From: Thermofilum adornatum
GTDB lineage: Archaea > Thermoproteota > Thermoprotei > Thermofilales > Thermofilaceae
Length of the DNA stretch: 32,000 nt
Direction: 5' to 3'
Assembly: GCF_000446015.1 (NCBI RefSeq)
Contig: NC_022093.1
Span: 690,001-722,000, forward strand
Shown here: piece by piece, positions 1-21,539 of the stretch
Layout: every line of letters starts with the position of its first letter
Numbering within the stretch: the stretch's first letter is position 1
The notes under the pieces: generated by a model
What the model saw: the letters and a program-made list of their open reading frames with translations, nothing else
Database searches by the model: none
What the model was told of the DNA's origin: nothing
Program-made: the position numbers and the translations under genes

Positions 1-740
1 TGCCCCGGCAACGACGAAAATGACTGAGGAAAGGATAGCAGGACCCAAGCCCAATACAGCTCCCCCAAAGGAAAACGGGGCAACACGTCCAAAACCTCCC
101 TGGGCAAACTAGCCCCTGGAAAAAGCTGGGGTACAATCTGCAGGATACCGGCCAAGCTCAAAAAGACAAACCACACAGCCGTCTGGACCCCTCTCAAAAA
201 CAAGCTCCTCGTATACTTCCCCCCAAGGGACCCCGCAATATAGCCAATGCCAAAAGCCAACAAGAGAACCGAGAAAGCCTCCACCAGGCCCCAGAAAATC
301 AGGCCCCACATCTTGAAATACAGCGAGACCACTATGACCCCCGGAATCACCAGAAACGGCACCGAGGCGCCGCCAAGATACACCCCCACCAGGAGAAGGG
401 CAATCCTAAGGTCCCACTCGTCCACCGGCATAAAAGAAATGGGCTTCAAAAGGTCTTCGCTAAGAATAGTATTTGTAGCCGCAGTCACGGCGAAGGCGCC
501 AAAAAAGAGCCCGAGAAGGCCGAGAGCCCCCATAAGCAAGGGGAGCGCACCTATATCAGACAAAAACATTACAGAAGACACTACAGACAAAAAACTCATA
601 AACAGGATGCCCACGGCCATAGACCCAGAGAAAAACCCTCCAAGAAAATACTTTCTCCCAGATACCCCAGACCCAAACTTCCTAGATGCACGGTAAGCAG
701 TCTCCCTAACAAGAACCCTGGACAGCTCCCTCCAGCCCAT
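1..740 (-). CDS. ABC-2-type transporter permease (3' end cut by window edge)
   Basis: Absent from the ORF track because it runs off the window. The reverse-strand frame opens at ATG 740-738, sharing one base with the TGA of the upstream ATPase (TGATG), and stays open to position 1. Hand translation MGWRELSRVLVRETAYRASRKFGSGVSGRKYFLGGFFSGSMAVGILFMSFLSVVSSVMFLSDIGALPLLMGALGLLGLFFGAFAVTAATN... is a multi-span hydrophobic protein. Confidence 0.7.
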   Translation of the reverse strand, partial: MGWRELSRVLVRETAYRASRKFGSGVSGRKYFLGGFFSGSMAVGILFMSFLSVVSSVMFLSDIGALPLLMGALGLLGLFFGAFAVTAATNTILSEDLLKPISFMPVDEWDLRIALLLVGVYLGGASVPFLVIPGVIVVSLYFKMWGLIFWGLVEAFSVLLLAFGIGYIAGSLGGKYTRSLFLRGVQTAVWFVFLSLAGILQIVPQLFPGASLPREVLDVLPRFPLGELYWAWVLLSFPQSFSSLPG

Positions 741-1498
741 CAGAACCCCCACAGCAACCTAATCATCTCCTTAACCTCGTCGCTGAGGCCAGTAGCCCTA
801 AGAAAAACTGACTCCAGGTCGGGCGCCGAAAGCCTCTCCTTTAGCTCCTTCGGGGACCCCGCTCCCACAACCCTCCCCCTACTCAAAATAACAACATTGT
901 CAGCTACAGCCTCGGCAATCTCGAGAATATGAGTAGAAAACACGACGGTCCTCCCCTCACTTGCAAGCTTCCTCAAAAGCTCCTTGAGAATCCTCCCAGA
1001 CTCCGGGTCGAGACCATTAAAAGGCTCATCCAAAATGAGCACCGCAGGCTCGTGGAGAAGGGCCAAAATCAGCGAAAGCTTCCTCTTGTTCCCCAAGCTC
1101 AGCTCCCCACAAAGCTTCCCCACCTGGTCCCCAAGCTTAAAAAGCCTCACAAGACGCTCAATCCTCTCCCTCAAAAACCCGTTGGGAATCCCATATATCG
1201 AGCTAACAAACGAGAACAGCTCACCAGGAGTCAAACTCTCATAAAGAACAACCTCCTCCGGACAATACCCAACGATCCGCCTAGCAGAAACCGGATCCCG
1301 CACAGGGTCAACGCCACCAACCACAACACGCCCAGAATCAGGTCTCACGAGGCCGAGAGCCATCTTCATAAGCGTACTCTTACCCGACCCATTAGGACCC
1401 AGCAACGCGTGGACAACACCCGGCCTAAACTCCACGGAAACACCGTCCAAAACAACATTGCCCCCAAACCTTTTGGACACACCCTGATAAATCAGCAT
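740..1498 (-). CDS. ABC transporter ATP-binding protein (ABC-2/DrrA-like)
   Basis: 252 aa with Walker A GPNGSGKST, signature LSLGNKRKL, Walker B LILDEPFNGLD and an H-loop STHILE. Confidence 0.9.
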   Translation of the reverse strand: MLIYQGVSKRFGGNVVLDGVSVEFRPGVVHALLGPNGSGKSTLMKMALGLVRPDSGRVVVGGVDPVRDPVSARRIVGYCPEEVVLYESLTPGELFSFVSSIYGIPNGFLRERIERLVRLFKLGDQVGKLCGELSLGNKRKLSLILALLHEPAVLILDEPFNGLDPESGRILKELLRKLASEGRTVVFSTHILEIAEAVADNVVILSRGRVVGAGSPKELKERLSAPDLESVFLRATGLSDEVKEMIRLLWGF

Positions 1499-1646
1499 AC
1501 CATATCACTATATAACTAAAACTTCGACTTTATAAACCTATTTATAAATCCCAGCGTCAAACTACAGCAACTCGCCTGAAATGCCAGCTAAACATTGAAG
1601 CAAGCTCTAGAAAAACATATATGCATGTGTTACAAAAAATACATGT

Positions 1647-1889
1647 ATGGCAATCATTACCGTAAGGATCCCCGAAGAACTAAAAAAGAAAATGCGCGAA
1701 ATAGACATAAACTGGAGCGAATACATCAGATCCGCCATAGAGAAAAGAATAGAAGAAGAAAAAAGAAAAAACATAGCCAAAGCAGTCCTACTAAACGAGA
1801 AACTCAGAAAAAAATCCAAGGGCGAACCACCCGCCGAAGAGATCATACGAACATTCAGGGAAAGCCGCTATGGAGACAGTGGTAATTGA
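1647..1889 (+). CDS. vapB: Ribbon-helix-helix (CopG/VapB-like) antitoxin
   Basis: 80 aa. The N-terminus MAIITVRIPEELKKKMREIDINWSEYIRSAIEKRI has a strand-helix-helix pattern. It overlaps the downstream PIN gene by 20 nt. Confidence 0.75.
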   Translation: MAIITVRIPEELKKKMREIDINWSEYIRSAIEKRIEEEKRKNIAKAVLLNEKLRKKSKGEPPAEEIIRTFRESRYGDSGN

Positions 1890-2292
1890 CGCAAGCGTAG
1901 CAGTCAAGTGGTTCGTAGAAGAACACGGCACACAAAAAGCACTAGAACTAAGAGACCGCTACATAGATGGAGAACTAAAACTTATAGCCCCCCAACTATT
2001 CCCATATGAAGTACTAAACGTCCTGCGCTACAAACACCTCTTCACAATAGACGAGCTAAAAACAATAGGCGAAGCCCTCGAGGCCTATTCCATAGACCTA
2101 TATCCACTAGTCGGGAAACTCCGTGACACAACAATCCAAACAGCACACGAAAACAACATAACAATCTACGACGCCTCATACATTGCACTAGCCATAATCA
2201 AAAACACAACACTTTACACCGCAGACAAAAAACTAAAAAACAAACTCACGCCCCAACTTAGACAACTAGTCAAAACACTAGACGAAATCTAA
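1870..2292 (+). CDS. vapC: PIN-domain ribonuclease toxin VapC
   Basis: 140 aa with acidic PIN positions VVIDASVAVKW, IYDASYIALA and LYTADKKL. Paired with the upstream small RHH gene. Confidence 0.85.
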   Translation: METVVIDASVAVKWFVEEHGTQKALELRDRYIDGELKLIAPQLFPYEVLNVLRYKHLFTIDELKTIGEALEAYSIDLYPLVGKLRDTTIQTAHENNITIYDASYIALAIIKNTTLYTADKKLKNKLTPQLRQLVKTLDEI

Positions 2293-2802
2293 CACAAACC
2301 CCCTCCCAACCCCTAAGCAAAACATTTTTGAGATAGCGCCTCCCTTTAAGCCTTCTCCTTGGAAACCCTCCTCAGCTAACGAGAAAACCTCGACCCTTCT
2401 AAGACTCCCTAAAACTTCTCAATCCTACCGAGCCTGCTCCCCTTGTCTCTGAGACCCTCCACTCTCGCCTCCCCCGACTCCTCCAGAAGGCTTCTCAGAG
2501 CCAGAAGACAATTTTTCAAGGTGCTCCAGTATGCGACCGCGCGCGCAGATTCTACTTCACCGTCAACTTCGCCTGAGCCCACGCCCCAGCAGCAACCAGG
2601 GAAGGAATATTGTTTTCTCCCAAGGCTTCCACTTAAAAACCTCGACAATGGGGGACTAAAACTCAAATATTTTTAATGAACGTGATGGGAGAAAAGCCTC
2701 GCATATGCTACCAAGAGGTATTTCTCGCATCACCCTAAACTCTTGATTTAAGAGTTTCTACTGGGAATATAAGCAGGCCAGAAACATTAATGTTGAAAAA
2801 AT

Positions 2803-3465
2803 ATGAGTGAAAATATACCACCCCTAGAAGGCATAAAAGTTGCCGAGCTAGCCATAAAGCTACGCAAATACTTTGACACGGTTTATGGCGCCCACATCTT
2901 CCTCTCTATAGGTACTGTGATAGCATCGTACTGGATGATAATCTTTGCTACAGCTACTGTCTTCAACCTCTTCGAGTCGCTAACCTTTTGGCTTGGGGCT
3001 CTAATCTTAATGTGGGTCCTTATACCCTTCTCTATGCGGCTCGTTCCCTATCCTTCACCTATAAAAACAGCCTCTATTGTGAAAAAGCTTTCCGCCTGGG
3101 TTCTGCCATTTATCATACTATACACAGCTAGCATTTCATTAATCCTTTCCAAAGATCCTCTATTAACCGATATGGGAAAAACCCTCAACATGGGTGGCGC
3201 TGGGTGGTACCTGGCCGTCACACTAGACCTGCTTTTAAACCACTTTGTCTGGGAGAAGCAAGCATATAATAAAGGACAAATTCTAGCAAAACCCTTCCTG
3301 ATCGCAGGAGTCTTTATGCTGGCAACATCTCCGGCAGTCTACTATTTTGGACACCTATATATTGGCGCGGGAAACATCTTGGCCGTCGGGCTAACGCTTC
3401 TCGGCTACGGGATTGCCGCCTTTATCTCTATACGTAAAGCCTACAGGTGGCTCCAAGGTGCATAA
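2803..3465 (+). CDS. Hypothetical multi-span membrane protein
   Basis: 220 aa ORF with several long hydrophobic segments and an ATG start. No family recognised. Confidence 0.55.
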   Translation: MSENIPPLEGIKVAELAIKLRKYFDTVYGAHIFLSIGTVIASYWMIIFATATVFNLFESLTFWLGALILMWVLIPFSMRLVPYPSPIKTASIVKKLSAWVLPFIILYTASISLILSKDPLLTDMGKTLNMGGAGWYLAVTLDLLLNHFVWEKQAYNKGQILAKPFLIAGVFMLATSPAVYYFGHLYIGAGNILAVGLTLLGYGIAAFISIRKAYRWLQGA

Positions 3466-3475
3466 GACCAATGAC

Positions 3476-3784
3476 GTGGCTTACCTGCTCAGAAACTTAA
3501 ACAGCGAACTCTTCAACTCGAAACGCTTCATGATAGTTTCGCTACTCTACATATTTGGAAAAATGAAGCTCTCAGAGCTAAGGAAAATACTCGACCTGTC
3601 ATGGGGAGACCTAGACACCCACATAAAGAAACTAGTTGAACAAGGCTACGTAGAGCTCTGGAAAGAGCCAGGCGAGAAAAAAGTACTGGAGACAGTTGCC
3701 TACCTAACCGAAAAGGGTAGGCAAGAGTACGAGAAACTATACGACGTCCTTAGGGCTATCTCATCCCAGATAGAGACAAAATAA
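3476..3784 (+). CDS. Small winged-helix DNA-binding protein (ArsR/MarR-like fold)
   Basis: The ORF track frame is 3413..3784 with a TTG start inside the upstream gene. GTG 3476, just after the upstream stop, gives about 102 aa. The pattern MKLSELRKILDLSWGDLDTHIKKLVEQGYVELWKE...VAYLTEKGRQEY is typical of wHTH. The start is uncertain. Confidence 0.6.
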   Translation: MAYLLRNLNSELFNSKRFMIVSLLYIFGKMKLSELRKILDLSWGDLDTHIKKLVEQGYVELWKEPGEKKVLETVAYLTEKGRQEYEKLYDVLRAISSQIETK

Positions 3785-4060
3785 TATTTCTTTGTTTTTT
3801 GTACGGAACATGCCCTGCGGAGCGCGCACTACTTCCCCGTCGAGGCCCTACCAGAACAACTCCAAGCAGTCTCCCGACTACTCCCACAGACATATGCGAT
3901 GAGAATAGCGAGGCTGGCGCTCCTACAAGGCCTCGGGCTCAGCAGCCTCTGGCAAGACTTCGCAGCCTTAACACTCTCCGCCTTAATCCTGTTCCCCCTA
4001 GGAGTATCTCTATACAGGTACTCCATCGACCTAGTACGGGTAAAGACACTAGTCGAATAA
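3785..4060 (+). pseudogene. C-terminal remnant of an ABC-2 permease (no start, N-terminal two thirds missing)
   Basis: Open frame found by hand: ...ALRSAHYFPVEALPEQLQAVSRLLPQTYAMRIARLALLQGLGLSSLWQDFAALTLSALILFPLGVSLYRYSIDLVRVKTLVE*. It aligns in pattern with the C-terminus of the intact permease at 23764..24516 (LYFPLEVLPGHLRVAVMLNPPSLAVELVRRAIISG...). The only in-frame ATG leaves about 52 codons. Confidence 0.6.
3795..3800 (+). terminator. Oligo-T tract after the wHTH gene
   Basis: tttctttgtttttt lies directly after the TAA at 3782-3784. Archaeal termination commonly uses oligo-T runs. Confidence 0.3.
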
Positions 4061-4431
4061 ACCCATACAGGCAGGCCAGCGCGCCCAATACAACCTAGCC
4101 CTATAAAAACAGCCCACAGCCTCGGTGCATAGAAACTTCAGAACGCAACACTCCCTTAGAAATACCGTTACATACCGTTCCGTAACGGTAAATTTACAGG
4201 AAGCAATCCGTTATCAACATTGAATAGACAAGACAGAAAGCAAGCACCTCGAATACAAGCAGGCCCTCTCCAGCTTCGACTCCATACTAGCCACCATCTC
4301 CGCTTTAGCCAAAACATGGTAAGGATGAATACACATAAGCGTCAACTATGGAAAAACAGTGGGCGTCTATATGGGCAGGGACCCCTCAAAGAACCTGCAA
4401 ACAACTTATCCCAAAGACCCAGCCCCATACG

Positions 4432-5343
4432 CTACCCACATTCACTGCCTACGCCTAAAGTTCCTAACGAGGAACATTGTCCCCCATACTCCGTCTTCAA
4501 CAACAAGTTCTCCCTCACCAGCCCCTCAATAAGCCCCACGGGGTCCTCAACCCTGCCTACCAGTGCCTCCACGGCCTCCCCATACCTCAAAGGATGAACA
4601 GCACACGTATTCAAAAGCCACGCAACAGGGTCCCCACTGACCAGCCTCGGGGGAGGCTCCGGCATATTCAAGAGCTCCACCCTACCGGAGCCCAGGACCC
4701 CCTGAAACTCCTCGTAGGCCTCCACAAGCTCCCTCTCCGTGGGCGGCTCGACAAAGGACTCCGCAGGCGTCCTTATAGGTACAGAGATATATGCTTTAGA
4801 CAGCCTCAGCCCCCTGAGAAAAGTGGCTATGTCCCTATACACCCCCTTATCCGTGTTCACGCCCCTAACAAACATTGTCTCAGAGATCAGCGTCCCCTTG
4901 TAGGATGACGAAAACTCCCTTATCCCATCTAGGACCCTCTCCAGCACCAGCGACGGGTGCGGCCTATTTATCCTCCTCCAAACCCTTTCCGACACGCTGT
5001 CAACCTTCACCGAGACAACGTCGGCCTGCTCCAAGTCCCTACACACATCCTCCATCCACAACAAGGAAGCATTGGTCAAGACAGCCACCCTGACACCAGT
5101 CTCCCCCTTAACAAACTCTATAATCCTGCCCATACAAGCGTCCAGGGTCGGCTCACCATCCGGAACAAAAGTCACATAGTCAACACTATCCCTATTCCTC
5201 GACACGAAGTCCACAACCTCTCCAGCCACGTCCCTCCAGTCATAGAAACACTTCCTCTCAACACTCAACCTAGCCGTCCGCCCAAGCTGACAATACACAC
5301 AGCTATACGTACAAGTCTTATAAGGAATATTATTAACCCCCAA
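4432..5343 (-). CDS. Radical SAM protein
   Basis: 303 aa with CTYSCVYCQ (a CxxxCxxC cluster motif), then DYVTFVPDGEPTLD and VAVLTNASLL. The track start is TTG, and conserved-looking sequence continues upstream (see findings). Confidence 0.85.
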   Translation of the reverse strand: MGVNNIPYKTCTYSCVYCQLGRTARLSVERKCFYDWRDVAGEVVDFVSRNRDSVDYVTFVPDGEPTLDACMGRIIEFVKGETGVRVAVLTNASLLWMEDVCRDLEQADVVSVKVDSVSERVWRRINRPHPSLVLERVLDGIREFSSSYKGTLISETMFVRGVNTDKGVYRDIATFLRGLRLSKAYISVPIRTPAESFVEPPTERELVEAYEEFQGVLGSGRVELLNMPEPPPRLVSGDPVAWLLNTCAVHPLRYGEAVEALVGRVEDPVGLIEGLVRENLLLKTEYGGQCSSLGTLGVGSECG

Positions 5344-5752
5344 ACTACGGCCAAGACGCCTCGAAAAAACAGGTCCAAAAACATACCCACCCGTATAAAC
5401 ACCACCATCAATAACACCATGCTAAAATTAAAACCTTCCCCTAACCCAAAAACAAGCCCTGAGAAAAGTCTCCACAGCACTCCTAGCAATACTAGTATTG
5501 ACACAGACCATTATCCTAGCCCCACAACCGCACAAGAACAACAACTGCGCGGTGCGCGGCTCGCTGGACACACAGTCATAATGGTCATAGCCAAGCATAA
5601 AGAAATCTAGCTTGTGACACATGACAAGTACTCGCCACAAACCTTATTGTAATATTTATAAATGATTACATAGTTGCAAAGAGTTCCTCTGCTTTCTTGG
5701 GCATAACATACCGCTTCATACCAAAGAGCTAAGCCTACTAGAAATGTGATTG

Positions 5753-5773
5753 ACCCCTGGATTTCTACTGGAG
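5753..5773 (-). promoter_or_regulatory. ORB-like box a
   Basis: The reverse complement reads CTCCAGTAGAAATCCAGGGGT, which is 18/21 identical to box c. It has a dyad-like core plus a G-string. Confidence 0.55.
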
Positions 5774-5840
5774 TAGAATAAAAAAGCAAGGCATAATATA
5801 TTCTCTTTTACTCTACTCACAAGTTTTTCTTTAATATAGT
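5774..5840. other. AT-rich spacer between inverted boxes a and b (candidate unwinding element)
   Basis: 67 bp with 16 G/C by hand count (24 % GC). Flanked by boxes a (- orientation) and b (+ orientation), with both G-strings distal. Confidence 0.45.
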
Positions 5841-5861
5841 TTCCACTTGAAATAGAGGGGT
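5841..5861 (+). promoter_or_regulatory. ORB-like box b
   Basis: TTCCACTTGAAATAGAGGGGT, 18/21 identical to box c. Confidence 0.55.
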
Positions 5862-5938
5862 CTGAGAAGATTATACATGCTACGGGGATTTTTCAACCGT
5901 ATAACTGTATAATGGGGATGGGAAAAGGGGTTTAAATA

Positions 5939-5959
5939 ACCCCTCTATTTCCACTGGAG
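5939..5959 (-). promoter_or_regulatory. ORB-like box c
   Basis: The reverse complement reads CTCCAGTGGAAATAGAGGGGT: a TCCAGTGGA dyad, an A-rich linker and a GGGG string. Confidence 0.6.
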
Positions 5960-6190
5960 TTTTGGAAACGGACAAGTTCGGGCTCTTTATGGTGTTATTC
6001 ACAGTCTTCATTATCTTTTTATCTTTAGTTTAGCAGAAAAATATCTGTTAAAAAAACAGAGAATTTTCCATGATTATACAGTTTCAACAATTGCTGTTGC
6101 ATCTCTGATTTCGGAACCGTAACATAATCCTATACCTCTAATGAGAGAAACGTGAGATCAAATAGCTGCGCATTGTAGATGGATTTTTTC

Positions 6191-6199
6191 TAGCGCGCT
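6191..6199. repeat. Short form of the GC palindrome (TAGCGCGCT)
   Basis: tctagcgcgcttgaa, within the origin-like spacer. Confidence 0.5.
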
Positions 6200-6294
6200 T
6201 GAAACTGCACTATGCTTTTTAGAACCGATGTATACTATACCATACAATGACCGAGCAATAACAACCCGTATCATATGAATGGAAGCAGGTAACA

Positions 6295-6687
6295 ATGTTC
6301 CGAAAATACATGAAGGAACTCAGCCCGACAATCACGAAGGGCGAGGAACCGGGAAGCGAAGACTCTCTGCGGATTATGGTGGCCAAGAACGGCGTGAGGA
6401 CACTTGCCTTGTCTTTGCTGAGGAGATTGAAGCAGGATAAAGAGGATAATCAAAGGAAATACGCCGAGTATGTCTTGGAGGTGGACATCGACCAGCCTGA
6501 GACCGCTGCGTCGCTCTCTATGAAGATCCAGGACTACGACATGGTGCCTAGTCTTGGCTGGCTAGCCGAACCGGTGATAACAACGACCAATAGTGTGAGG
6601 GAGAATGGTTTCGAACGCACGGTCGAGCTTATACTCGAGGGTATCAAGTCTTTCATAATGAGCAAGGTAAAACTCGAAAGGTTATAA
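6295..6687 (+). CDS. Hypothetical protein (orphan, adjacent to the origin-like region)
   Basis: 130 aa ORF with an ATG start and a purine-rich stretch ggaagcaggt 5-14 nt upstream. An oligo-T tract follows the stop. No family recognised. Confidence 0.5.
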   Translation: MFRKYMKELSPTITKGEEPGSEDSLRIMVAKNGVRTLALSLLRRLKQDKEDNQRKYAEYVLEVDIDQPETAASLSMKIQDYDMVPSLGWLAEPVITTTNSVRENGFERTVELILEGIKSFIMSKVKLERL

Positions 6688-6698
6688 AAACTAAATTA

Positions 6699-6704
6699 TT
6701 TTTT
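6699..6704 (+). terminator. Oligo-T tract after 6295..6687
   Basis: aaattattttttgtag lies 12 nt after the stop codon. Confidence 0.3.
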
Positions 6705-6885
6705 GTAGTAGTATTCGGCGCTCGCTGTTTCTCTAGTGTCTTAGCTTTTTCTCTTTGCTGGCTTGATTCTTGGGCTTGGCGGTGTCCTGCTCTTGGGTAT
6801 TACGGGTGGATGGTTGGGGTGCCTAGTTTTAGTATTTGTTGTCGATGTTGTATTGGCTATATATGAAACGCACTGTGTTGACGCT

Positions 6886-6895
6886 AGCGCGCGCT
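6886..6895. repeat. AGCGCGCGCT palindrome, copy 1
   Basis: gacgcTAGCGCGCGCTtagg, upstream of the second vapB. Confidence 0.7.
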
Positions 6896-6950
6896 TAGGT
6901 CTCTTGTGTATATTTTTCACGCTGAGTATTAGAAAAGGTTTTATGTATGT

Positions 6951-6970
6951 CCGTATATACGTATATACGG
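6951..6970. promoter_or_regulatory. Perfect 20-bp palindrome, candidate operator/TATA region of vapBC-2
   Basis: CCGTATATACGTATATACGG equals its own reverse complement and ends 8 nt before the vapB ATG at 6979. Confidence 0.5.
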
Positions 6971-6978
6971 GTGTCTGG

Positions 6979-7263
6979 ATGGCTAAGAGGAAGCTTACTT
7001 TGAGTGTTGAGGGTGACTTGCTAGATGAGGTTAAGGGGATTGTTGCCGTCAGGGGGAGGAGCTTGAGCAGTATCGTTGAGGAATATCTAGAATACCTGGT
7101 TTTCGAGAGGTGGGCTGAAGCTCTTAGCGAGGAGCTGGGTCTTGGCGATCTCGAGCCCACAACGGAATCAGAGATCTCGGGGGGCAGGCCTAGAGGGCTT
7201 GACGCGGCCGCTGTTGTTAGGGAATTGAGGGAGGGGAGGGTGAAGGATATTGCGGGGAGCTAA
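6979..7263 (+). CDS. vapB: RHH-type antitoxin (VapB-like)
   Basis: The track ORF 6763..7263 has an implausible hydrophobic, Cys-rich N-terminal extension. In-frame ATG 6979 gives 94 aa, MAKRKLTLSVEGDLLDEVKGIVAVRGRSLSSIVEEYLEYLV, which fits the RHH pattern. It overlaps the PIN gene. Confidence 0.75.
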   Translation: MAKRKLTLSVEGDLLDEVKGIVAVRGRSLSSIVEEYLEYLVFERWAEALSEELGLGDLEPTTESEISGGRPRGLDAAAVVRELREGRVKDIAGS

Positions 7264-7708
7264 AACTGAGAAGGTGTATTACTTGGACACAAGTGCACTG
7301 GTGAAGAGATATGTGGAGGAGCCGGGCAGCAAAATCATTGATGAGATCTATAGGGATGCGTACAAGGGTGTTGGAAAGCTGGCTTTTTCCTACTGGAACA
7401 TTGCTGAGGTTGCAGTTGTTTTGGACAAGTATGAGAGGAAGCTTGGGCTTGATGCCAGAAAGCTGCTGAGGAACCTGCTTAGTGAGTCTTCGACTCTCTC
7501 TAGGCTGCGCAGGCTTGTAGTTGTCAGTGTTAGTCCCTTAATCCTGCGGGCTTCCTTAAAGCTGGTGCTAAAGCATCACATATATGTTGCGGATGCCCTC
7601 CAGCTGGTATCAGCCAAAAGTATTGGTAACTGCACGTTTGTCACTGGTGACAGGGAGCTGGCAAGAGTGGCTGAAGCTGAGGGATTAAACACATTGTACA
7701 CAGGCTGA
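7250..7708 (+). CDS. vapC: PIN-domain ribonuclease toxin VapC
   Basis: 152 aa with YYLDTSALVKRY, IYVADALQLVSA and FVTGDRELARVA. The alternative start GTG 7274 would give MYYLDTS. Confidence 0.85.
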   Translation: MRGAKTEKVYYLDTSALVKRYVEEPGSKIIDEIYRDAYKGVGKLAFSYWNIAEVAVVLDKYERKLGLDARKLLRNLLSESSTLSRLRRLVVVSVSPLILRASLKLVLKHHIYVADALQLVSAKSIGNCTFVTGDRELARVAEAEGLNTLYTG

Positions 7709-7737
7709 GTGAAAATTGAGATCAAGCAATGTGAGAT

Positions 7738-7747
7738 AGCGCGCGCT
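7738..7747. repeat. AGCGCGCGCT palindrome, copy 2
   Basis: gtgagaTAGCGCGCGCTaagg, starting 30 nt after the vapC-2 stop. Confidence 0.7.
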
Positions 7748-8137
7748 AAGGACAGATGAGGATGGTAAAACTGAGTATGGGGTCCCGGTTCTCCTTTATT
7801 ATGAGGATGTGTGTATAGAGCCTTATGAATATTGAGCGTGTGGGTGGATGCGTGGTAGCCATTTGTTGGCGCGGGCTTGTGGTGATGTTGGTAGGGGTGG
7901 CCTGTTAAAGGCGTGCATGAGGGTCCGAAGGGGGTTGGAGGAGTTGTGTTTGCTCCCATGTTGCTGTTTAGGGTAAAGGGTTTTGGTTGGATATGTGGCT
8001 TGTCTGGGGTTTGTTGTAGGTCTGTTTGTTGCGGTAAGGATGGGGTCCAGGTTGATGGGTTCTTTGTGGCGCTGTTGCCTGTTTTCGGTTATGGGGCTGT
8101 GGCACGGTATGGGTTAAAATCTCTATGTGGGTGGTTG

Positions 8138-8689
8138 TTATATTTTTCCGAGTGCGTTTAGGAGTGCTAGAGTTAGTTGGACTATTAGTGTTGCTATGAT
8201 TGTTGCTGTGAGTGCCCATGTGACCTTTGTTGCGTGGTCTATTCGCTTGTCCAGCGCATCTATTCTTTTGTCTAGTGCGTCAATCCTTTTATCTAGACCG
8301 TCGATCCTCCTGTCCAGCGAGTCTATTCTCTTGTCTAGGTCGCCTATTCTCTCTACGAGCTGTGTGAATGCGCCCTCGAGCCTCGAGACCCTCTCTGAGA
8401 GGCCTGTGACCCTGTCTTCTAGCACTGATATCCTGGCTAGGACCTCGCTCCTCAAGGCCTCGATGCTTTCCCTAGTCTCCTTTCTCAGGGCTTCGATATC
8501 TTGCCTTGTCGCCCTTTCTAGGGCCTCTATGTCGCTCTTCGTGGCCACGTCCCTCAGGACGGCGTTTATCATTGCCAGCCTGACGTCGGGCTCGCCTACG
8601 AGGAGCTCTGCCAGCCTCTTCCTAGCCCTAGCATCGGCCTCAAAAAGCCTGACAACATCCTCGGCAGTAATCGACTGCATCCCCTTCAC
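8138..8689 (-). CDS. Coiled-coil protein with heptad tandem repeats and a C-terminal membrane anchor
   Basis: 183 aa. The long helical region carries DIEALER / DIEALRK / SIEALRS, then five LD(K/R)RID heptads, and ends in the hydrophobic tail VTWALTATIIATLIVQLTLALLNALGKI. Confidence 0.7.
   Translation of the reverse strand: MKGMQSITAEDVVRLFEADARARKRLAELLVGEPDVRLAMINAVLRDVATKSDIEALERATRQDIEALRKETRESIEALRSEVLARISVLEDRVTGLSERVSRLEGAFTQLVERIGDLDKRIDSLDRRIDGLDKRIDALDKRIDALDKRIDHATKVTWALTATIIATLIVQLTLALLNALGKI
8237..8341. repeat. 5 x 21-bp imperfect tandem repeat (coding)
   Basis: Units at 8237, 8258, 8279, 8300 and 8321. Each encodes xLD(K/R)RID on the - strand (ALDKRID, ALDKRID, GLDKRID, SLDRRID, DLDKRID). 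Confidence 0.85.
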
Positions 8690-9040
8690 CTTATAGAGCC
8701 TCTTAAGTATCTTATATAGTTTTCAGTTTCCGGAGTGTGCTCCCTGGCCAAACGCTATAAAGATAAACGTTTTCTATATGTATCCTCCAGATTTTTGGAT
8801 GGGTATCGGGGTAGCCCATGCTCTGGCGTCGCTGTGTATCCAAGCATGAGCACATAAGTGATGGAGGGGCGCGCGTTTTCTGTTAAGAGTGATATTGGTG
8901 TGCTGGAGGTGTATGTAATCTGGGTAGTCAATATTGTGTGATTTGGCTGTTTTTCGTTTTTGGTTGCTTCTTGAGTGGGTGTGTTAAATTAAGAGTTGGG
9001 GTTATATTACCCCGTAGTTGTATTATTGTTAGAGTTGTTG

Positions 9041-9433
9041 ATGGCGCCTAAGATCAAAATTGAGGATACGACGGGGTCTGGGGAGAAGATCACGTTGACT
9101 ATTGAGGGGGCGGAGATTAGCGAGAAAAGGGTGGTGCAGGTTTTGCAGATGCTTCGACTTCTCAAGTCTTCTGGCGGGGGCGTGGTTGAGGAGGGGGAGA
9201 GTATGAAGGAGAGGATTTGGAGGGTTATTGTGGAGAATTTTGGTGATGGGACGTGGTTTAGTATTCGGGACCTGTATAATGTTGCTTCCCGGGAGATGCC
9301 GGACCTGAAGGTTACGGCTGTGTCTACGTATGTTTCCCGCCTTGTCGGCGAGGGGAGGCTTGTTAAGAGGGGGTCGAAGCCGAACACGCGTTACAGGGTC
9401 CAGTCGGTTAGGCGGGAGGCGGCTTATCCATAG
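9041..9433 (+). CDS. Hypothetical protein with C-terminal winged-helix-like region
   Basis: The track ORF starts at 8996, but ATG 9041 (MAPKIKIEDTT...) follows a TATA-like ttatatta at 9003-9010. The C-terminus is SIRDLYNVA...VSTYVSRLVGEGRLVKRGSKPNTRYRV. Confidence 0.55.
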   Translation: MAPKIKIEDTTGSGEKITLTIEGAEISEKRVVQVLQMLRLLKSSGGGVVEEGESMKERIWRVIVENFGDGTWFSIRDLYNVASREMPDLKVTAVSTYVSRLVGEGRLVKRGSKPNTRYRVQSVRREAAYP

Positions 9434-9603
9434 GAGTGGTCCCGGTTTAGCGTTGTATAGGGTTCCCGTTGCGCCTTATGAGGGGGTCTTGTTGCCTTTT
9501 GGTGGCAGTTTTATGGTTATATAGTTGCATGCTTTGGATATAGAGCTTGGGGTCAGAGCGATAACTGTATATATTGTCTTTTTCGAATAATATGTAGGTA
9601 GAG

Positions 9604-10947
9604 ATGAAGAGCTTGGCGAAGCCACTTGTAGCCTTTGTCCTATTATTTTTGTCTTTGTCTCTTGTATCAAGCGTTCTCTTCAGTGCAAGTGGTAATGGTA
9701 GTTGTGGTGCGTCTAATGCACTTGAGAGGACGGGTCCTCTTAGTGTCGACTTGAGGGTTGCTGTTATTAGTAGTGATTCTGGCTTTGTGGAGGGTGTTAG
9801 GTCTGCTTTTGTGGCGAGGGACTTTAGGGTTGTTCCTGTGTCCCGTGCCTGGGAGGCTGTTGGAAAAGACCTAGTAGTTGTCGGCTGGGACGCGTTGGGC
9901 GAGCTGTCAAGATACCCGGGGCTCGTCATAGCACTGGTCAATGGCTCGAGGCTTCTGGCTGTAGCCGAGCCGGGCGTTGATGCCCTCAGGGTGCTCTTCT
10001 CTGGCATCGTCAAGCCAGTAAGGCTCGGCGAAAAGGATGAGCCAAGCGACCCCTTCGCTTTCGTACCAATGGTCGAGGAAAACGGCTACCTATACCCAGG
10101 CTGCGGCCAGAACATGGTTCTCGTGAGGGCTTTACCCATAGGGGGAGGAAAGCTGGCCGTTGAGTATTCTGCGGCGCCGCTAAGGACGAAAAGCGAGCTT
10201 GCAGGGGTAGCGTCGCTACTGGTTAAAGAGTCGTTTGTGGAGCAGCGGTCGCAACAGACAAGGCTGGAAAGTGGGGCGGGCACGTCCGGGTTCTTGTTCG
10301 ATAAGTCGCCGGCATGGGTATACATAGGAAAGTACACTAGTCCGGTGTTTGTTTTTTCTGGTGTTTTTGGAGATGCCGGAGCAACGGACTTTGAAGTTCT
10401 GGCTGGCTGGGGACAGTTTTTGACTGACAATAGTCGTGGGACGTATACGTGGGAGATCGATGTACATTATCACGGGATGGAAGGCCTAAATGGTTATAGC
10501 CCGCCTGTAAAGAATCTGCTTGGTCTCTGGGCTGTTGAGCCGAATAGTGTTGTAGTGGATGCGCTTACAGATAGGTATGGTGACCAGAGGATTAAGGATT
10601 GGGAACCTTTAGGGTCGCCCGGTAACCGCTTCGTGTTGACTATAGGGGGTTACCCAAGGGTGACCTGGGATACGGTTACCGATTTTTGTTATAGTCCCTT
10701 TTACGGCGAGAATGTTGTAAAGGGGGCTACGTGGAAGTGGGGCTTAACGGGCTATAGCTCCAAACTTTATTATGCAATGAAGAGCCAAGTGTGGATGAAC
10801 GCCGTTGGGGTCCTATACTTCAAGGTAACTATCAAGGCGAATACCTTCTTTTATGCGAACGGGCTCAGGGACGTTGCGTCTTCTGGGTGGCATGAATTCT
10901 ACTTCCGGGCGACAACGTCTCGGCTATACTTGCTGTCGACATCATAA
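9604..10947 (+). CDS. Secreted/extracellular hypothetical protein
   Basis: 447 aa. The N-terminal signal-like segment is MKSLAKPLVAFVLLFLSLSLVSSVLFSASG, and the Trp/Tyr/Gly-rich C-terminal half suggests a beta-rich fold. No family recognised. Confidence 0.65.
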   Translation: MKSLAKPLVAFVLLFLSLSLVSSVLFSASGNGSCGASNALERTGPLSVDLRVAVISSDSGFVEGVRSAFVARDFRVVPVSRAWEAVGKDLVVVGWDALGELSRYPGLVIALVNGSRLLAVAEPGVDALRVLFSGIVKPVRLGEKDEPSDPFAFVPMVEENGYLYPGCGQNMVLVRALPIGGGKLAVEYSAAPLRTKSELAGVASLLVKESFVEQRSQQTRLESGAGTSGFLFDKSPAWVYIGKYTSPVFVFSGVFGDAGATDFEVLAGWGQFLTDNSRGTYTWEIDVHYHGMEGLNGYSPPVKNLLGLWAVEPNSVVVDALTDRYGDQRIKDWEPLGSPGNRFVLTIGGYPRVTWDTVTDFCYSPFYGENVVKGATWKWGLTGYSSKLYYAMKSQVWMNAVGVLYFKVTIKANTFFYANGLRDVASSGWHEFYFRATTSRLYLLSTS

Positions 10948-11117
10948 ATATATATTCGGCTAATAGCAAACGGAAGCTTTTTCTTAGAACCTTTCAATGC
11001 CATGCGAGAGAAGTTTATACACGAGGAGGGTTTGCATGTGGTATATTTCGCATCTATGAGCCATGTCTAATATCGTAACACTTAAATATTTTATTGTATT
11101 AATTGCGTTTGGTAACA

Positions 11118-11795
11118 ATGGTTTCAGAGAGCCTCCTGGAGCAGGCGAGGAATCTTCATGGACATGTATGCCCCTACCTTGTTTTGGGCTTGAGGGCTTC
11201 TGAGATAGCTTTTGAGAGGCTGGGAATCACGCGTGTGGGGGTGGCCGAGACTATGAGAGAGGATGTTGTTGCGATAGTTGAGGCTAACAACTGCTTCGCA
11301 GACGGTGTCCAGGTGTTTACTCGTTGCACGTTTGGCAACAATTCCCTTGTTTATCTGGATACAGGAAAGACTGCTTTGACTGTGTTTAGGAGAGGCGAGA
11401 AAAGAGGGGTGAGGGTCTATGTTCTGTCTGAGAGGGTTAGAGAGCTCCTCCAGCCGGAGGTGGGTGAGCTTTGGCGTAGGGTTGTTGCTGAGAGGAGGGG
11501 GTCTAGGGAGGATGCTGAGAGGTTGCACGAAGCGTTCGAGAAGCTTGGACGTGGGATGCTTAACCTGTCGGAGGACTTCTTTAAGATCAGCGAGGTGGAG
11601 GTTGTAGAGGAGCTTGAGAGGGCGCCGATCTTTGAGAGTGTTAGGTGTGAGTCCTGTGGGGAGCTGGTGATGAAGCCTAGGGCTGTCCTTAAGGACGGGA
11701 AGTGGTTCTGCGCGTCGTGCGCGGGTGTGCCTGTACAGGCCGTGGTTGGCAGGGGTATTTCCACCGTGAAGGTTCCCTTTAGGGAGGTGAGCTAG
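11118..11795 (+). CDS. FmdE-domain protein with C-terminal zinc-ribbon
   Basis: NLHGHVCPYLVLGLRA is the FmdE-family hallmark. The C-terminus has CESCGE...CASC. The start is taken at ATG 11118 rather than the track's TTG 11103. Confidence 0.8.
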   Translation: MVSESLLEQARNLHGHVCPYLVLGLRASEIAFERLGITRVGVAETMREDVVAIVEANNCFADGVQVFTRCTFGNNSLVYLDTGKTALTVFRRGEKRGVRVYVLSERVRELLQPEVGELWRRVVAERRGSREDAERLHEAFEKLGRGMLNLSEDFFKISEVEVVEELERAPIFESVRCESCGELVMKPRAVLKDGKWFCASCAGVPVQAVVGRGISTVKVPFREVS

Positions 11796-11796
11796 G

Positions 11797-12939
11797 GTGG
11801 AGAGGAGGACCATTGCATTGGTCATTGTTCTCGTTGTAACGGTAGTGTTGCTAGGTGTTGTTGCAGTAATGGTCTTCCGGGCTCCTGGGTCGCAGGAGAC
11901 GAAGCCTCAAGCGCCCCGTGTCATAACTGTGGTTGACTTTTCTAATAGGACGGTAGAGGTGCCCGTTAATGCTTCTAGGGTCGTCGCCATTGGTCCAGGG
12001 GTGTTGCGGCTAGTTGCCTACCTTGGAGCGCTCGACAAGATTGTTGGTGTTGAGGATGCCGAGAAGAGCTGGTCGCCGCTAGGTAGGGATTACGCGATGG
12101 CGTATGGTGATGTATTTAAGAACCTGCAGGTGATAGGTCCAGGCGGGCCTAGGAATCCTCCTAACCCAGAGTTGCTTAGGAGCGTGAAGCCGGATATTGT
12201 GCTGATGTCTCGGGTGTACGTAGACGTCTACGACCCTGACAGGCTGTCGCAGGAGGTTGGAGCCCCAGTCGTGGTGATCGACTACGGCGTGGCTGGTTAC
12301 CTGAATGTCACGGAGTTTAAGCGCGCGATAACTCTGCTCGGGAGGATTCTGGGTAGGGAGGCTAGAGCGCAAGAGTTGGCCAAATACATTGACGGTGTCG
12401 TCGACGATCTTGCTCAGAGGGTCAGAGTTGCTAAGGTAGCCCCCTCGGTGTATGTTGGGGCAGTGTCGTACAAAGGTGCTCAGCCGTTTACAGGCACGCA
12501 GGGCATGTTTCCGCCTCTACAGCTCTTGAAGACGAGGAGCATAGTCGACGAGCTGGGCAAGAAGGGCTTCGTGAACGTAGACTTTGAATACATACTGAAG
12601 AAGAATCCAGAATATATCTTTATAGACCTTAATAATCTGCAGACGGTTCTGGATGACTATAAAAAGGATTCAGCGAAGTACTGTGCTCTAGGGGCGTTCA
12701 AGGAGGGCAGGGTATATGCATTGCTACCCTTCAACTATTACCACACGAACGTGGCTACAGCCCTCGTGGACGCCTACTTCATGGGGAAGGTGCTCTACCC
12801 AGAGCAGTTCAAGGACGTAGACCCAGCCAAGAAGGCGGACGAGATCTACAGGGTGTTTCTGGGGAAGCCGCTCTACGAGGAGTTCGTGAGGGGCTTCGGC
12901 AGAGGCTTTGGACCCCTAAGCGACCTCTTCAAGTGCTAG
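11797..12939 (+). CDS. ABC uptake substrate-binding protein (BtuF/FepB-type, class 8 PBP)
   Basis: 380 aa with an N-terminal membrane anchor. VVDFSNRTVEVPVNASRVVAIGPGVLRLVAYLGALDKIVGV is typical of the iron-chelate/cobalamin binding-protein family. The GTG start lies 1 nt after the FmdE stop. Confidence 0.85.
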   Translation: MERRTIALVIVLVVTVVLLGVVAVMVFRAPGSQETKPQAPRVITVVDFSNRTVEVPVNASRVVAIGPGVLRLVAYLGALDKIVGVEDAEKSWSPLGRDYAMAYGDVFKNLQVIGPGGPRNPPNPELLRSVKPDIVLMSRVYVDVYDPDRLSQEVGAPVVVIDYGVAGYLNVTEFKRAITLLGRILGREARAQELAKYIDGVVDDLAQRVRVAKVAPSVYVGAVSYKGAQPFTGTQGMFPPLQLLKTRSIVDELGKKGFVNVDFEYILKKNPEYIFIDLNNLQTVLDDYKKDSAKYCALGAFKEGRVYALLPFNYYHTNVATALVDAYFMGKVLYPEQFKDVDPAKKADEIYRVFLGKPLYEEFVRGFGRGFGPLSDLFKC

Positions 12940-12949
12940 GGGCTAGTGG

Positions 12950-13996
12950 ATGGAGCGTGGCGTCTACATTATATTTGAGAGGAAGGTTTTCCTCATAGTT
13001 GTCCTCGCTTTACTGGCTGTTGTATCTGTCCCTGTCACTGTCGCGTTTGGAACTGTGTATAAGCCATGGGAGGTGTTGGCCGGCGTCCTTCTGGGGTCTA
13101 GCGACGTTTTCCAGGCACTAGTTTTAAGGTTTAGGAGGGCCCTGGTTGCGTTACTCGTCGGCGCTCTCCTGGGTGGTGCCGGGGTGCTTACGCAGGCGTC
13201 TTTCAGGAATCAGCTTGCGTCGCCTTTCACGCTTGGTATTTCAAGTGCGTCTGCGCTCGGCGTTGCCGTTGCATTGGTGCTGGGGGTTGGCGGTAGGGGA
13301 AGTAGCTGGTTTGTGTCCTTTTCCTCTCCGTTCGTTCTTGCATTGTTTGCGTTTGCTTTTTCTATTGTTCAGACTCTGCTTGTGCTTCTCCTAGCTTGGA
13401 GGGCGGGGCTAGATCCACGGGCACTCGTCTTGGCGTCTATTTCTCTGAACTTCATGTATCAGGCTGTCTTGTACCTAGTGCAGTACCTCGTGCTTAACGA
13501 GGTTCAGCTTGCCACGGTTGTCTTCTGGACTTTTGGGGATCTTGGGAGAGCAGGCTGGCAGGAGCTGGGCGTCCTTCTTTTTGGAACCCCTGTCTTCGCC
13601 CTGGCTTACCTGGTTCTGCACAGGGATTTGGACTTGCTTGTCTTGGGCGACGACGTAGCCGAGACGTCTGGCATAAATCCGAGGCGGGCTAGGCTTATCG
13701 CCGTGATGGTGGCCGCTCTGGGCGCCGCGCTGGCAACTAGCTTTGTGGGGATACTGGCCTTTCTGTGCCTGCTGTCTCCACATGTTGCAAGGCTTTTGAT
13801 TGGTGGTAGGCATAAGTACCTGGTTTCTGGGTCCATGCTTATAGGCGCCTTGATCCTTGTGTGGGCTGACGCCGTGTCGCGGACTGTTTTGTCGCCCGTC
13901 GTTTTGCCCGTGGGGATAACCTTGTCGTTGACGGGTGCACCTTTACTGATATATCTATTGACTAGGGGTGGCGGGGTTGGCGGCTATAAGGGTTAG
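12950..13996 (+). CDS. FecCD/BtuC-family ABC permease
   Basis: 348 aa and polytopic, with FTLGISSASALGVAVAL and ILAFLCLLSPHVARLLIG motifs characteristic of FecCD transport proteins. Confidence 0.9.
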   Translation: MERGVYIIFERKVFLIVVLALLAVVSVPVTVAFGTVYKPWEVLAGVLLGSSDVFQALVLRFRRALVALLVGALLGGAGVLTQASFRNQLASPFTLGISSASALGVAVALVLGVGGRGSSWFVSFSSPFVLALFAFAFSIVQTLLVLLLAWRAGLDPRALVLASISLNFMYQAVLYLVQYLVLNEVQLATVVFWTFGDLGRAGWQELGVLLFGTPVFALAYLVLHRDLDLLVLGDDVAETSGINPRRARLIAVMVAALGAALATSFVGILAFLCLLSPHVARLLIGGRHKYLVSGSMLIGALILVWADAVSRTVLSPVVLPVGITLSLTGAPLLIYLLTRGGGVGGYKG

Positions 13997-14738
13997 AGGG
14001 GTCTCGGTTTACTTTGGAGGGTTCCAGACGCTTAGGAGTGTGGAGCTTGAGGTTGGAGAGGGGGAGTTTCTCGCCGTTATAGGGCCTAACGGGAGTGGGA
14101 AGACTACTCTGCTTAGGACAATCGTCGGCGTGCTTAGGCCCAGGGTGGGGGCTGTATACATTGATGGGAAGGAGTTGCAGGAGTACAGCAGGCTGGAGCT
14201 GGCAAGAAGGCTGGGATATGTTCCTCAAGGTTTAGAGCGACAGAAGTTTCTCACGGTTCTCGAGTTCGTGTTGACTGGGAGGAGGCCGTATATTTCCTTC
14301 GACTATGCGCGGGTCGACTACGAGAAAGCTATGGAGGCCCTCCGCAGGGTAAATGCCGAGCACTTGGCGGCGAGGACGCTAGATACACTTAGCGGTGGAG
14401 AGTTTCAGAGGGTGGTGATTGCGAGGGCTCTTGCAGGCGAGCCCGAGGTACTCGTACTGGACGAGCCTACGAGCAACTTGGATCCGAGGTTCCAGTTGGA
14501 GATAATGGATATGCTTAGGGGGCTCACGGGGGACAGAATAACTGTTGTTTCCAGCATGCATGACCTTACCCAGGCCTATAGGTACGCGGACAAGGTCGTG
14601 GCGCTTAAGGGTGGACAGATCTATGCTATGGGCAGGCCGGAGGAGGTTCTCACGGAGGACAACCTGCAAAGGATCTACGGGGTGAAGGTTAAAGTTTTTC
14701 CAGAGCACAGGGCCATTATTCTAGACAATTCTCTATAG
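13968..14738 (+). CDS. ABC ATP-binding protein (FepC/BtuD-type)
   Basis: Walker A GPNGSGKTT, signature LSGGEFQRV, Walker B VLVLDEPTSNLD and H-loop SSMHDL. Confidence 0.9.
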   Translation: MAGLAAIRVRGVSVYFGGFQTLRSVELEVGEGEFLAVIGPNGSGKTTLLRTIVGVLRPRVGAVYIDGKELQEYSRLELARRLGYVPQGLERQKFLTVLEFVLTGRRPYISFDYARVDYEKAMEALRRVNAEHLAARTLDTLSGGEFQRVVIARALAGEPEVLVLDEPTSNLDPRFQLEIMDMLRGLTGDRITVVSSMHDLTQAYRYADKVVALKGGQIYAMGRPEEVLTEDNLQRIYGVKVKVFPEHRAIILDNSL

Positions 14739-14846
14739 CATTTTCTGTTTTAAACAAGGATTTACGCATGGATTTATATGTGTTTCAGGGTAGAGTGCAT
14801 GCCCTATGTATCATCTTCCCTTAAGAAAATGATTTAGCGATATATA

Positions 14847-14856
14847 TAGCGCGCTA
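14847..14856. repeat. Short palindrome TAGCGCGCTA
   Basis: gatatataTAGCGCGCTAactagcc, in the spacer before 14892. Confidence 0.5.
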
Positions 14857-14891
14857 ACTAGCCGAACTATAGGAAGTGAGGGGGTATATCG

Positions 14892-17440: not shown

Positions 17441-17755
17441 AGCTTAAGAATCATTTAGAAAGGGGGAACGTTCTTATAGAATTAGTCCTATGTATGGCTA
17501 TGTGTTTGATAAATGGTAATGCATGCGGTTCAGAGGTTGAGCCTTCGCGGAGTGATAGTCCTATTGTTTATGTTTTCTGACTCTGCTATGAAGGCAACTT
17601 TCCAAAGAAAAACATCAGTGATATATAAGTGATATATATATGAGAATTATTATATTATAGGATTGTGAAAACAACATGATAGCAATAGTGCTTGAGAAAG
17701 GCTCCATAGCGACGCCGAACCGCGATGTTGACATGCGCGCTGATATCAAGGTATC

Positions 17756-19868: not shown

Positions 19869-19872
19869 AGGG

Positions 19873-21534: not shown

Positions 21535-21539
21535 CTGTT

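Follow-up and report, generated by a model that had tools for sequence, protein, structure and literature searches.

Comparison of alleles among closely related strains shows that a short palindrome made up of G and C, GCGCGC or GCGCGCGC, arises, as far as the aligned sequences allow it to be read, together with DNA loss or rearrangement and sits at the joint. The motif was studied in genomes of the type of Thermofilum adornatum, a crenarchaeon that grows at about 80°C (PMC6965361). Our preferred reading, to which we give a probability of roughly one half, is that GCGCGC and GCGCGCGC are a fixed-sequence junction filler left by non-homologous DNA end joining in these genomes. End-joining repair is poorly understood in hyperthermophilic archaea. 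If the filler reading is correct, the genomes would constitute a readable record of past DNA breaks, with the same six or eight bases marking non-homologous joints, so that illegitimate recombination, gene loss, and gene-block gain could be counted directly in such an archaeon. A further implication would be a new enzymatic activity that gives a defined G/C sequence to DNA ends.

Occurrence of the GC palindrome in the window

The window, by which we mean the whole stretch of 32,000 nucleotides analyzed here, has a G+C content of about 50% and contains the 10-mer AGCGCGCGCT four times, at positions 6886 to 6895, 7738 to 7747, 19688 to 19697, and 21540 to 21549, where dinucleotide-preserving shuffles yield 0.04 copies. 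A T lies directly 5' of all four copies. An exact recount agrees with the initial annotation on these copies and their positions, and it returns the same 14 loci of the core GCGCGC that had been found by eye; they correspond to 21 overlapping matches, compared with 3.8 in shuffled sequence. The shorter forms that had been listed are all present, but one of them, GCGCGCT, is located at 17735 to 17741 and not at 17745.

A gene map was assembled from the gene calls of near-identical contigs and from long open reading frames. According to this map, 24% of the window (7.8 kb) is non-coding, with a G+C content of 43%, and 24 kb is coding. Twelve of the 14 GCGCGC loci lie in non-coding DNA, where a first-order Markov model predicts 0.67, an enrichment of about 18-fold (binomial P = 2e-6 for this placement), and the motif is present in 11 of the 19 spacers that are 100 nt or longer. 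The initial annotation is thereby borne out in its claim of an enrichment in AT-rich spacers. Its companion claim, that the motif is avoided in genes, finds no statistical support: protein genes hold one locus against about 3.3 expected, a deficit that is not significant. That locus, GCGCGC at 12321 to 12326 on the plus strand, is indeed the single one in a protein gene, as had been reported. A further locus sits in a tRNA gene, where it forms the hairpin of an intron (26059 to 26073). The copy at 12321 lies inside a periplasmic-binding-protein gene (..E F K R A I..) and is shared by all strains; the Thermofilum relatives L001, L018, and L019, which are 80% identical, have it too. It is ordinary coding sequence outside the phenomenon.

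A search for a larger repeat, a MITE, or a small-RNA gene around the core, by repeat detection, by aligning seven sites, and by looking for shared k-mers across 22 sites, returned the GC core alone. The flanks have nothing in common except a tendency to A on the 5' side and T on the 3' side of the core. A 20-nt resemblance was seen upstream of the sites at 6193 and 7739 and is not general. An Rfam scan of the window found tRNA alone. Some sites precede a gene, some follow one, and some lie between convergent genes, at distances that vary, and mapping them against gene starts and stops, a check that had been proposed earlier, reveals no fixed position or distance. A promoter or terminator element was rejected on the grounds of this inconsistent placement. 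Literature searches on the 10-mer, on GCGCGC in Thermofilum or in archaea, and on T. adornatum found no description of the element, in keeping with the earlier statement that no described element matches the motif.

Strain alleles and deletion joints

The window was compared with about a dozen contigs of 92 to 99% related strains, taken from independent assemblies (NCBI MAG, JGI, ENA, and Logan). Contigs L009, L011, and L013 are 99.7 to 99.98% identical to the window; L008, L010, L012, L014 to L017, L027, and L031, which come from other metagenomes, are about 94 to 98% identical over shared blocks; and L030 is a 92% relative at the protein level. The GC-rich Thermofilum relatives L001, L018, and L019, Thermofilum pendens Hrk5 (L028), and Infirmifilum lucidum (L033) served as farther comparators. 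The comparators were found with an exact-protein look-up and two collection scans. An aminotransferase encoded in the window (positions 26610 to 27941, minus strand) is 100% identical to Thermofilum adornatum AGT35185.1.

Between T. adornatum-type strains, differences at the sites are indels or replacements, not point mutations, and the blocks of homology between the window and other strains stop exactly at (GC)3-4. Small indels elsewhere between the strains are ordinary. The clearest cases are four deletions in which a segment of 0.5 to 1.4 kb is replaced by the motif. In L008 and L010, the sequence ..GGGGTC-GCGCGCGC-CTGTAAAG.. stands in place of window positions 9442 to 10504, a segment of 1,063 bp that covers the 5' two-thirds of a 447-amino-acid open reading frame and is intact in five others (the window and four more). 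In L027, ..AACAAT-GCGCGC-GGGGTATT.. replaces positions 11120 to 11751 (632 bp) inside the FmdE gene; because this gene is kept intact in nine strains and in 80%-identical relatives, the deletion in L027 is the derived state. At 14847 to 14856 (TAGCGCGCTA), GCGCGC takes the place of a segment of 561 to 590 bp with a 179-amino-acid gene. The short allele with GCGCGC is found in the window, L009, L011, L013, and L014, and the long allele without it in L008, L010, L012, L016, and L017; the flanks TATATA and TAACTAG are common to both alleles (TATATA-GCGCGC-TAACTAG in the short one). Finally, at 17735 to 17741 (GCGCGCT), the window, L009, L011, and L016 have GCGCGC where L015 has 1,406 bp between ..ACAT and TGAT.., with genes for a Cys-rich peptide of 52 amino acids and a radical SAM enzyme of 441 amino acids.

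Two further sites are replacements of a few bases. At 6191 to 6200 (TAGCGCGCTT), the window reads TA-GCGCGC-TTGAAAC and L008 reads TA-TTC-TTGAAAC, and the homology with L031 breaks 6 bp away. At 16522 to 16529 (AGCGCGCG), the window, L009, L011, and L016 have CTATGA-GCGCGC-GATCATCG, compared with CTATGA-TTCTT-GATCATCG in L015. The segments replaced by the motif thus range from 3 bp to 1.4 kb, comprising the four deletions (1,063, 632, 561 to 590, and 1,406 bp) and the short stretches TTC and TTCTT. The motif-less alleles of these two sites (L008, at about 1860 on the reverse strand, and L015, at about 4905) share the 8-mer ATTCTTGA, which may possibly be a target preference or a coincidence.

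Other copies mark the edges of rearranged blocks. The copy of AGCGCGCGCT at 6886 forms the left edge of a vapB/vapC-like block; homology with L008 and L031 begins at 6894, right after the motif, and to the left of it their sequence is unrelated (..GGCGATTTTGGGCC) and has no motif. The copy at 21540 lies 6 nt past the stop codon of an HTH-CBS gene and at the left edge of a 2.9-kb ABC-transporter block (21550 to 24490). Neither block nor motif is present in L008, L010, L012, and L031, which have TTCGCATGCTG and 82 bp there, and three lineages diverge at this locus immediately past GCTGTT. The neighbors of both blocks, whose edges are the sites 6887 and 21541, vary between strains. L008 has window positions 5728 to 6689 as an inverted copy, with GCGCGCGC (at 1358) at one of its ends.

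None of the undeleted alleles has the motif at either end of the segment that is lost elsewhere, which implies that the motif arose together with the deletion. Polarity was assigned by parsimony and is firm for two deletions only. A two-step history, in which the motif was inserted first and the adjacent deletion followed later, may apply instead. Recombination between two preexisting copies was rejected on the same undeleted alleles, which have no copies at either end, and microsatellite slippage from GCGC seeds was rejected on the motif-less alleles, which have no seed. An assembly or library artifact was ruled out, because the same alleles recur across independent assemblies together with SNPs nearby.

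An automatic census of the comparisons identified 34 clusters of homology breakpoints, and 10 of these are no more than 5 bp away from a (GC)n locus in either genome. Window positions within 5 bp of a site make up 0.76%, and the excess of breakpoints has a binomial P value of 3e-5 under a deliberately conservative null. Counting against the filler reading, about two-thirds of the breakpoints have no filler, for example, the joint of a 1,079-bp deletion at window position 15030/15031 and that of a 4-kb deletion in L031.

The clustering of breakpoints at motif sites could also be understood if the motif were a preexisting fragile or recombinogenic site at which breaks start, either through a tendency to form Z-DNA or a cruciform or because a nuclease or topoisomerase specific for GCGCGC acts there. 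Two sites accord with such an order of events. At 7739 the motif is common to four strains while the adjacent 163 to 206 bp varies, and 6193 has GCGCGC in one strain, TTC in another, and a synteny break 6 bp off in a third. However, the segments lost in the two deletions of firm polarity are intact in five and nine strains, respectively, with no GCGCGC at either end, so that the fragile-site reading would still need a prior insertion of the motif, which is the very step to be explained. Tracts of 6 to 8 bp are, moreover, very short for Z-DNA or cruciform instability. We consider a fragile site improbable as the explanation.

Conservation at orthologous spacers had been named in the initial annotation as a check of the idea that spacers retain the motif for a function, be it as a binding site, a GC clamp, or a Z-DNA element. 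Ten window sites can be compared in strains of 92 to 97% identity. Seven of them (6193, 6887, 14849, 16523, 17735, 21541, and the tRNA intron) are absent, replaced, or at a synteny break, and with no shared flanks among the sites the idea does not hold for most of the motif copies. The conserved sites are 7739, 8869, and 19689 only. The copy of AGCGCGCGCT at 7738, 30 nt past the stop codon of the PIN (vapC) gene, is also present in L008, L014, and L031; the indel of 163 to 206 bp starts at its 3' edge, and L008 and L014 have an extra GTA at its 5' edge. GCGCGCG at 8869 to 8875, between divergent genes, is the same in the window, L008, L009, L010, L014, L016, and L031, and the copy of AGCGCGCGCT at 19688, between convergent genes, is the same in the window, L008, L009, L010, and L012. 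These three sites are more than a purely neutral scar requires and in this respect weigh against the filler reading. The remaining spacer sites considered are a (CG)4-type run at 2538 to 2546 in a 510-nt spacer, which only the window sequence covers, and AGCGCGCA (3821 to 3828) and AGCGCGCC (4078 to 4085), which share a spacer between convergent genes and for which the sole comparator is the near-identical L009.

A site under selection, whether it acted as a domain boundary, as a GC clamp against thermal melting of AT-rich spacers, or as an operator bound by a dimeric protein, would fit the perfect palindrome, the roughly 18-fold enrichment in spacers with 11 of 19 long spacers occupied, and the three sites conserved among strains. 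It is difficult to reconcile with the loss or replacement of 7 of 10 sites in strains that are 92 to 97% identical, with the inconsistent placement relative to starts and stops and the lack of a conserved flank, and with the presence of the motif in the remnant of a deleted gene (L027) and in a tRNA intron. We judge this account very improbable.

A footprint of a mobile element deserves more weight and is, of the rival accounts, the least unlikely one, although unlikely in itself. A transposon with GCG(C) ends, for example, a TA-targeting IS630/Tc1-like element or a MITE, would insert in spacers and on excision leave a few terminal bases of each inverted end behind, and imperfect excision would remove flanking DNA. 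A constant palindrome in two sizes, 6 and 8 bp, is what such an element would leave; a 5' TA is present at 8 of 21 distinct sites, with TA on both sides (TA...TA) around 7739, 14849, and L016:100, and flanking deletions are typical of imprecise excision, as established for P elements and Tc1. On the other side, no occupied site was found, and the roughly 250 kb of sequence from strains and relatives contained no full-length element with matching termini. The longer alleles (590, 1,406, 1,063, and 632 bp) have neither GCGC ends nor inverted repeats and consist of ordinary genes. In a non-systematic look through window open reading frames, gene calls, and strain-specific segments, no transposase or Y1 (RAYT) gene was noticed. 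At most sites, furthermore, a TA on each side is missing, and the flanks of the deletion joints are unrelated.

The filler reading would join these observations as follows. A break accompanied by some loss of sequence would be followed by the addition of the same short G/C extension (GCG or GCGC, as a 3' tail) to both ends. Because such tails would be self-complementary and very stable at 80°C, the ends could be held together and ligated, and the joined tails would form a palindrome of 3+3 or 4+4 bases. In spacers the scar would be neutral and would accumulate, and a scar in a protein gene would be purged, as it would displace the reading frame or break it. A longer version in the anticodon loop of a tRNA might survive, with its hairpin and the anticodon stem being excisable as an intron. 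Against this reading, we know of no enzyme or pathway by which DNA ends would gain a fixed, alternating G/C sequence, and Ku-type end joining is, to our knowledge, missing in most Crenarchaeota. Template-independent synthesis of palindromic repeats by thermophilic polymerases might conceivably supply the filler bases.

Two of the four clean deletions with GCGCGC start exactly at a start codon, namely, that at 17735 compared with L015 and that of the FmdE gene in L027. The L015 segment missing at 17735 runs from the ATG of the 52-amino-acid peptide (MGQCCINCQFC..) to the TGA of the 441-amino-acid radical SAM enzyme (L015:6022-7566). The coincidence with start codons could be due to chance, to selection for nonpolar deletions, or to a link with leaderless transcription starts.

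The tRNA-Met intron

The gene for tRNA-Met(CAU) occupies positions 26014 to 26112 on the minus strand, as determined with ARAGORN, with Rfam (tRNA, 54 bits), and by orthologue alignment. It contains an intron of 22 nt (sense sequence AGCGCGCGCCGCGCGCUGGAAC) at 26053 to 26074, minus strand, at tRNA position 37/38, and the hairpin of this intron is the GC palindrome. Contigs L008 and L010, which are 97% identical to the window around the locus, have an intact tRNA-Met of 77 nt that differs from the window by a clean 22-nt indel, and removal of the 22 nt from the window gene yields the same canonical 77-nt tRNA. L031 has the same intron as the window; L030 has an intron in which the central base of the hairpin is changed and in which there are two changes in the 3' tail; and I. 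lucidum has no intron. With T. pendens included, the orthologous tRNA-Met genes exhibit four different intron states across five lineages. That the same GC palindrome occurs here as at the spacer sites, present or absent between close strains, counts in favor of the filler reading.

The intron region is predicted to fold into the anticodon stem and a 7-bp GC hairpin. A hand-drawn bulge-helix-bulge with a 3-bp central helix has a free energy of -18.9 kcal/mol, compared with -23.2 kcal/mol for the stem plus hairpin with two 6-nt loop sides. The strict motif would be a helix, a 3-nt bulge, a 4-bp helix, a 3-nt bulge, and a helix; at the putative splice sites of this intron, a bulge-helix-bulge would be possible only in a relaxed form.

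Reviews state that tRNA introns in Thermoproteales move at the DNA level by a mechanism that is not known (PMC4090602). The "transposing" tRNA introns of Thermoproteales described by Fujishima et al. in 2010, as related in PMC4090602 and PMC10714607, resemble the present intron in their rapid gain, loss, and relocation. As related there, that work concerns similar introns across tRNAs and not the same GC palindrome in spacers or at joints. We put forward, as a doubtful extension of the filler reading, that a dedicated break-repair activity in Thermofilum writes the fixed (GC)3-4, and at times a GC hairpin of greater length, at non-homologous joints. This activity would also be where new introns and rearranged tRNA genes of Thermoproteales come from at the DNA level: the splicing endonuclease would recognize a GC hairpin in the anticodon loop along with the anticodon stem, and the hairpin would become an intron. 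Among closely related lineages, this one tRNA-Met gene has no intron, the GC-hairpin intron, or two other introns, and it offers a testable route to the gain and movement of short Thermoproteales tRNA introns at the DNA level, a question open since 2010.

The T. pendens orthologue (L028:11418-11542; CP000505) was missed by both ARAGORN and Rfam and has two noncanonical introns, one of 16 nt in the D-arm region and one of 29 nt past the anticodon stem with a palindrome, CACGCGTAGC..GCTACGCGTG, that is GC-rich and 10 bp long. The gene for tRNA-Glu(UUC) at L031:4514-4594, L032:4514-4594, and in L030, in the spacer between the Cdc6 and SpoU genes, scores 29 bits with Rfam, has extra bases in the anticodon region, and is probably another intron-containing tRNA gene; the spacer around it is greatly unlike in L030 and in L031/L032. 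A comparison of the 15-nt intron hairpin with viral contigs gave over 120 nonspecific matches to GC-rich phage contigs and was uninformative.

Distribution among lineages and comparison with known systems

In T. adornatum-type contigs, 3 to 12 loci are found in non-coding DNA, compared with 0.3 to 0.7 expected, and 0 to 2 in coding DNA, compared with 1.8 to 3.3, the excess being limited to spacers in this group. I. lucidum has no motif excess (1 non-coding locus versus 0.3 expected and 2 coding loci versus 4.1). T. pendens has 7 non-coding loci versus 1.8 expected and 18 coding loci versus 10, and in this genome GCGCGC and CGCGCG are both about 3-fold above the expectation from base composition, genes included. 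A second, substitution-type process may contribute to the coding excess of T. pendens. GCGCGC is clustered in its spacers: a 300-nt spacer at L028:1639-1938 has three copies, and another three lie less than 55 nt apart at L028:4604-4656. An excess of alternating purine-pyrimidine runs in T. pendens has been reported without explanation (Huang and Mrazek 2014; PMC4060949), and the filler reading may account for it.

The T. pendens counts bear on the possibility of a word bias, in which a GCGC or GCGCGC methyltransferase together with T:G-mismatch repair would turn near-matches into the palindrome, as has been proposed for HIP1. GCGCGC is a restriction-type palindrome, its roughly 3-fold excess in T. 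pendens, like that of CGCGCG, extends to genes, and the excess of alternating purine-pyrimidine runs there (PMC4060949) would be in line with such a bias. A single T/C change separates TGCGCGCG in L018 from TGTGCGCG in L019, two GC-rich relatives, the sole exception to the rule of insertion or replacement. But substitution cannot make a 6- to 8-bp insert at a deletion joint or replace TTC and TTCTT, and the limitation of the excess to spacers in the T. adornatum group also speaks against it. A role in restriction or methylation is possible but leaves the appearance of the motif at deletion joints unexplained, and of all the accounts considered, word bias is the one that we credit least.

HIP1 (GCGATCGC) of cyanobacteria is similar to the motif in that it is a short, G/C-rich, perfect palindrome that is far overrepresented and whose function is not known, and excision between HIP1 copies is reportedly promoted. 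HIP1 is plentiful within coding DNA too, a feature seen here in T. pendens only; the window, by contrast, has 1 locus in its 24 kb of coding DNA and 12 in the 7.8 kb that is non-coding. HIP1 is thought to spread by nucleotide substitution, whereas the motif in the T. adornatum-type strains arises by insertion or replacement at joints, the one exception being that in the relatives L018 and L019.

The GC clusters of yeast (Saccharomyces) mitochondrial DNA are palindromic inserts of G and C only that lie in AT-rich spacers, vary between strains, and are tied to deletions and rearrangements; occasionally they are tolerated inside RNA or protein genes. The placement of 12 of 14 loci in spacers of 43% GC and the variation of 7 of 10 comparable sites between strains are alike. 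However, yeast GC clusters are structured units of 30 to 60 bp that fall into sequence classes, and the Thermofilum unit has 6 to 10 bp, no internal structure, and no class-specific flanks. The yeast clusters often have a short target duplication, whereas bases are lost in the Thermofilum replacements (TTC, TTCTT, and 0.5 to 1.4 kb). They are discrete insertions in an organelle genome; the Thermofilum motif is the sequence of deletion joints in an archaeal chromosome.

End-joining filler and the N and P nucleotides of V(D)J recombination likewise add extra bases exactly at the joint of two trimmed ends, and P nucleotides are palindromic, as the motif can be. Known fillers are random, copied from nearby, or palindromic to the flank, whereas (GC)3 or (GC)4 is the same at unrelated joints, and the undeleted alleles have no GC run near the segment ends. 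The excision footprints of Tc1/mariner/IS630 elements share with the motif a constant short palindrome derived from two element ends and often bracketed by TA. Here, by contrast, no matching element was found, TA brackets occur at a minority of sites, and the 5' TA is missing at deletion joints other than that at 14849. The RAYT-mobilized REP/BIME elements are also extragenic palindromes spread through spacers, but REPs are imperfect palindromes of 20 to 40 nt that have a conserved tetranucleotide at the 5' side and are linked to a transposase gene. The Thermofilum sites showed none of these features, as far as the transposase gene is concerned among the open reading frames and gene calls examined. 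In its behavior the motif is most like yeast mitochondrial GC clusters and end-joining filler, and in its form it resembles HIP1; we do not class it as a member of any of these kinds, because it departs from yeast clusters in length and structure, from filler in that its sequence is not random, and from HIP1 in coding abundance and in spread by substitution. It likewise departs from REP elements and transposon footprints in defining features.

Window positions 5400 to 24500 form a hypervariable island with a toxin-antitoxin pair, orphan genes, and several ABC transporters, and the gene content of this island varies from each examined strain contig to the next. L031 lacks the entire block of the FmdE gene and the iron-type ABC transporter (10888 to 14891). 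L015:6022-8446 encodes a Cys-rich precursor, a radical SAM enzyme, an ABC ATPase, and a permease and looks like a complete peptide-maturation operon, of which the window retains only the transporter genes (17771 to 19422). The 217-amino-acid open reading frame at 14892 to 15545 is a fusion that results from the 1,079-bp deletion relative to L008, L014, L016, and L017, with a joint that has no GC filler. It combines the N terminus of a membrane protein with the C-terminal half of an ABC ATPase, has an LSGGQ-like motif and Walker B but no Walker A, and is probably a pseudogene. In the coiled-coil gene at 8138 to 8680 (minus strand), a 21-nt periodic, heptad-like repeat of at least four copies (8237 to 8350) varies in copy number between strains, with indels of 33 and 42 nt in L008 and L016. 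The signs of the G/C and A/T skews flip near 6 kb (1 to 6000 versus 6000 to 32000), matching the change in gene orientation, which the skew tracks because the coding strands are G- and T-rich.
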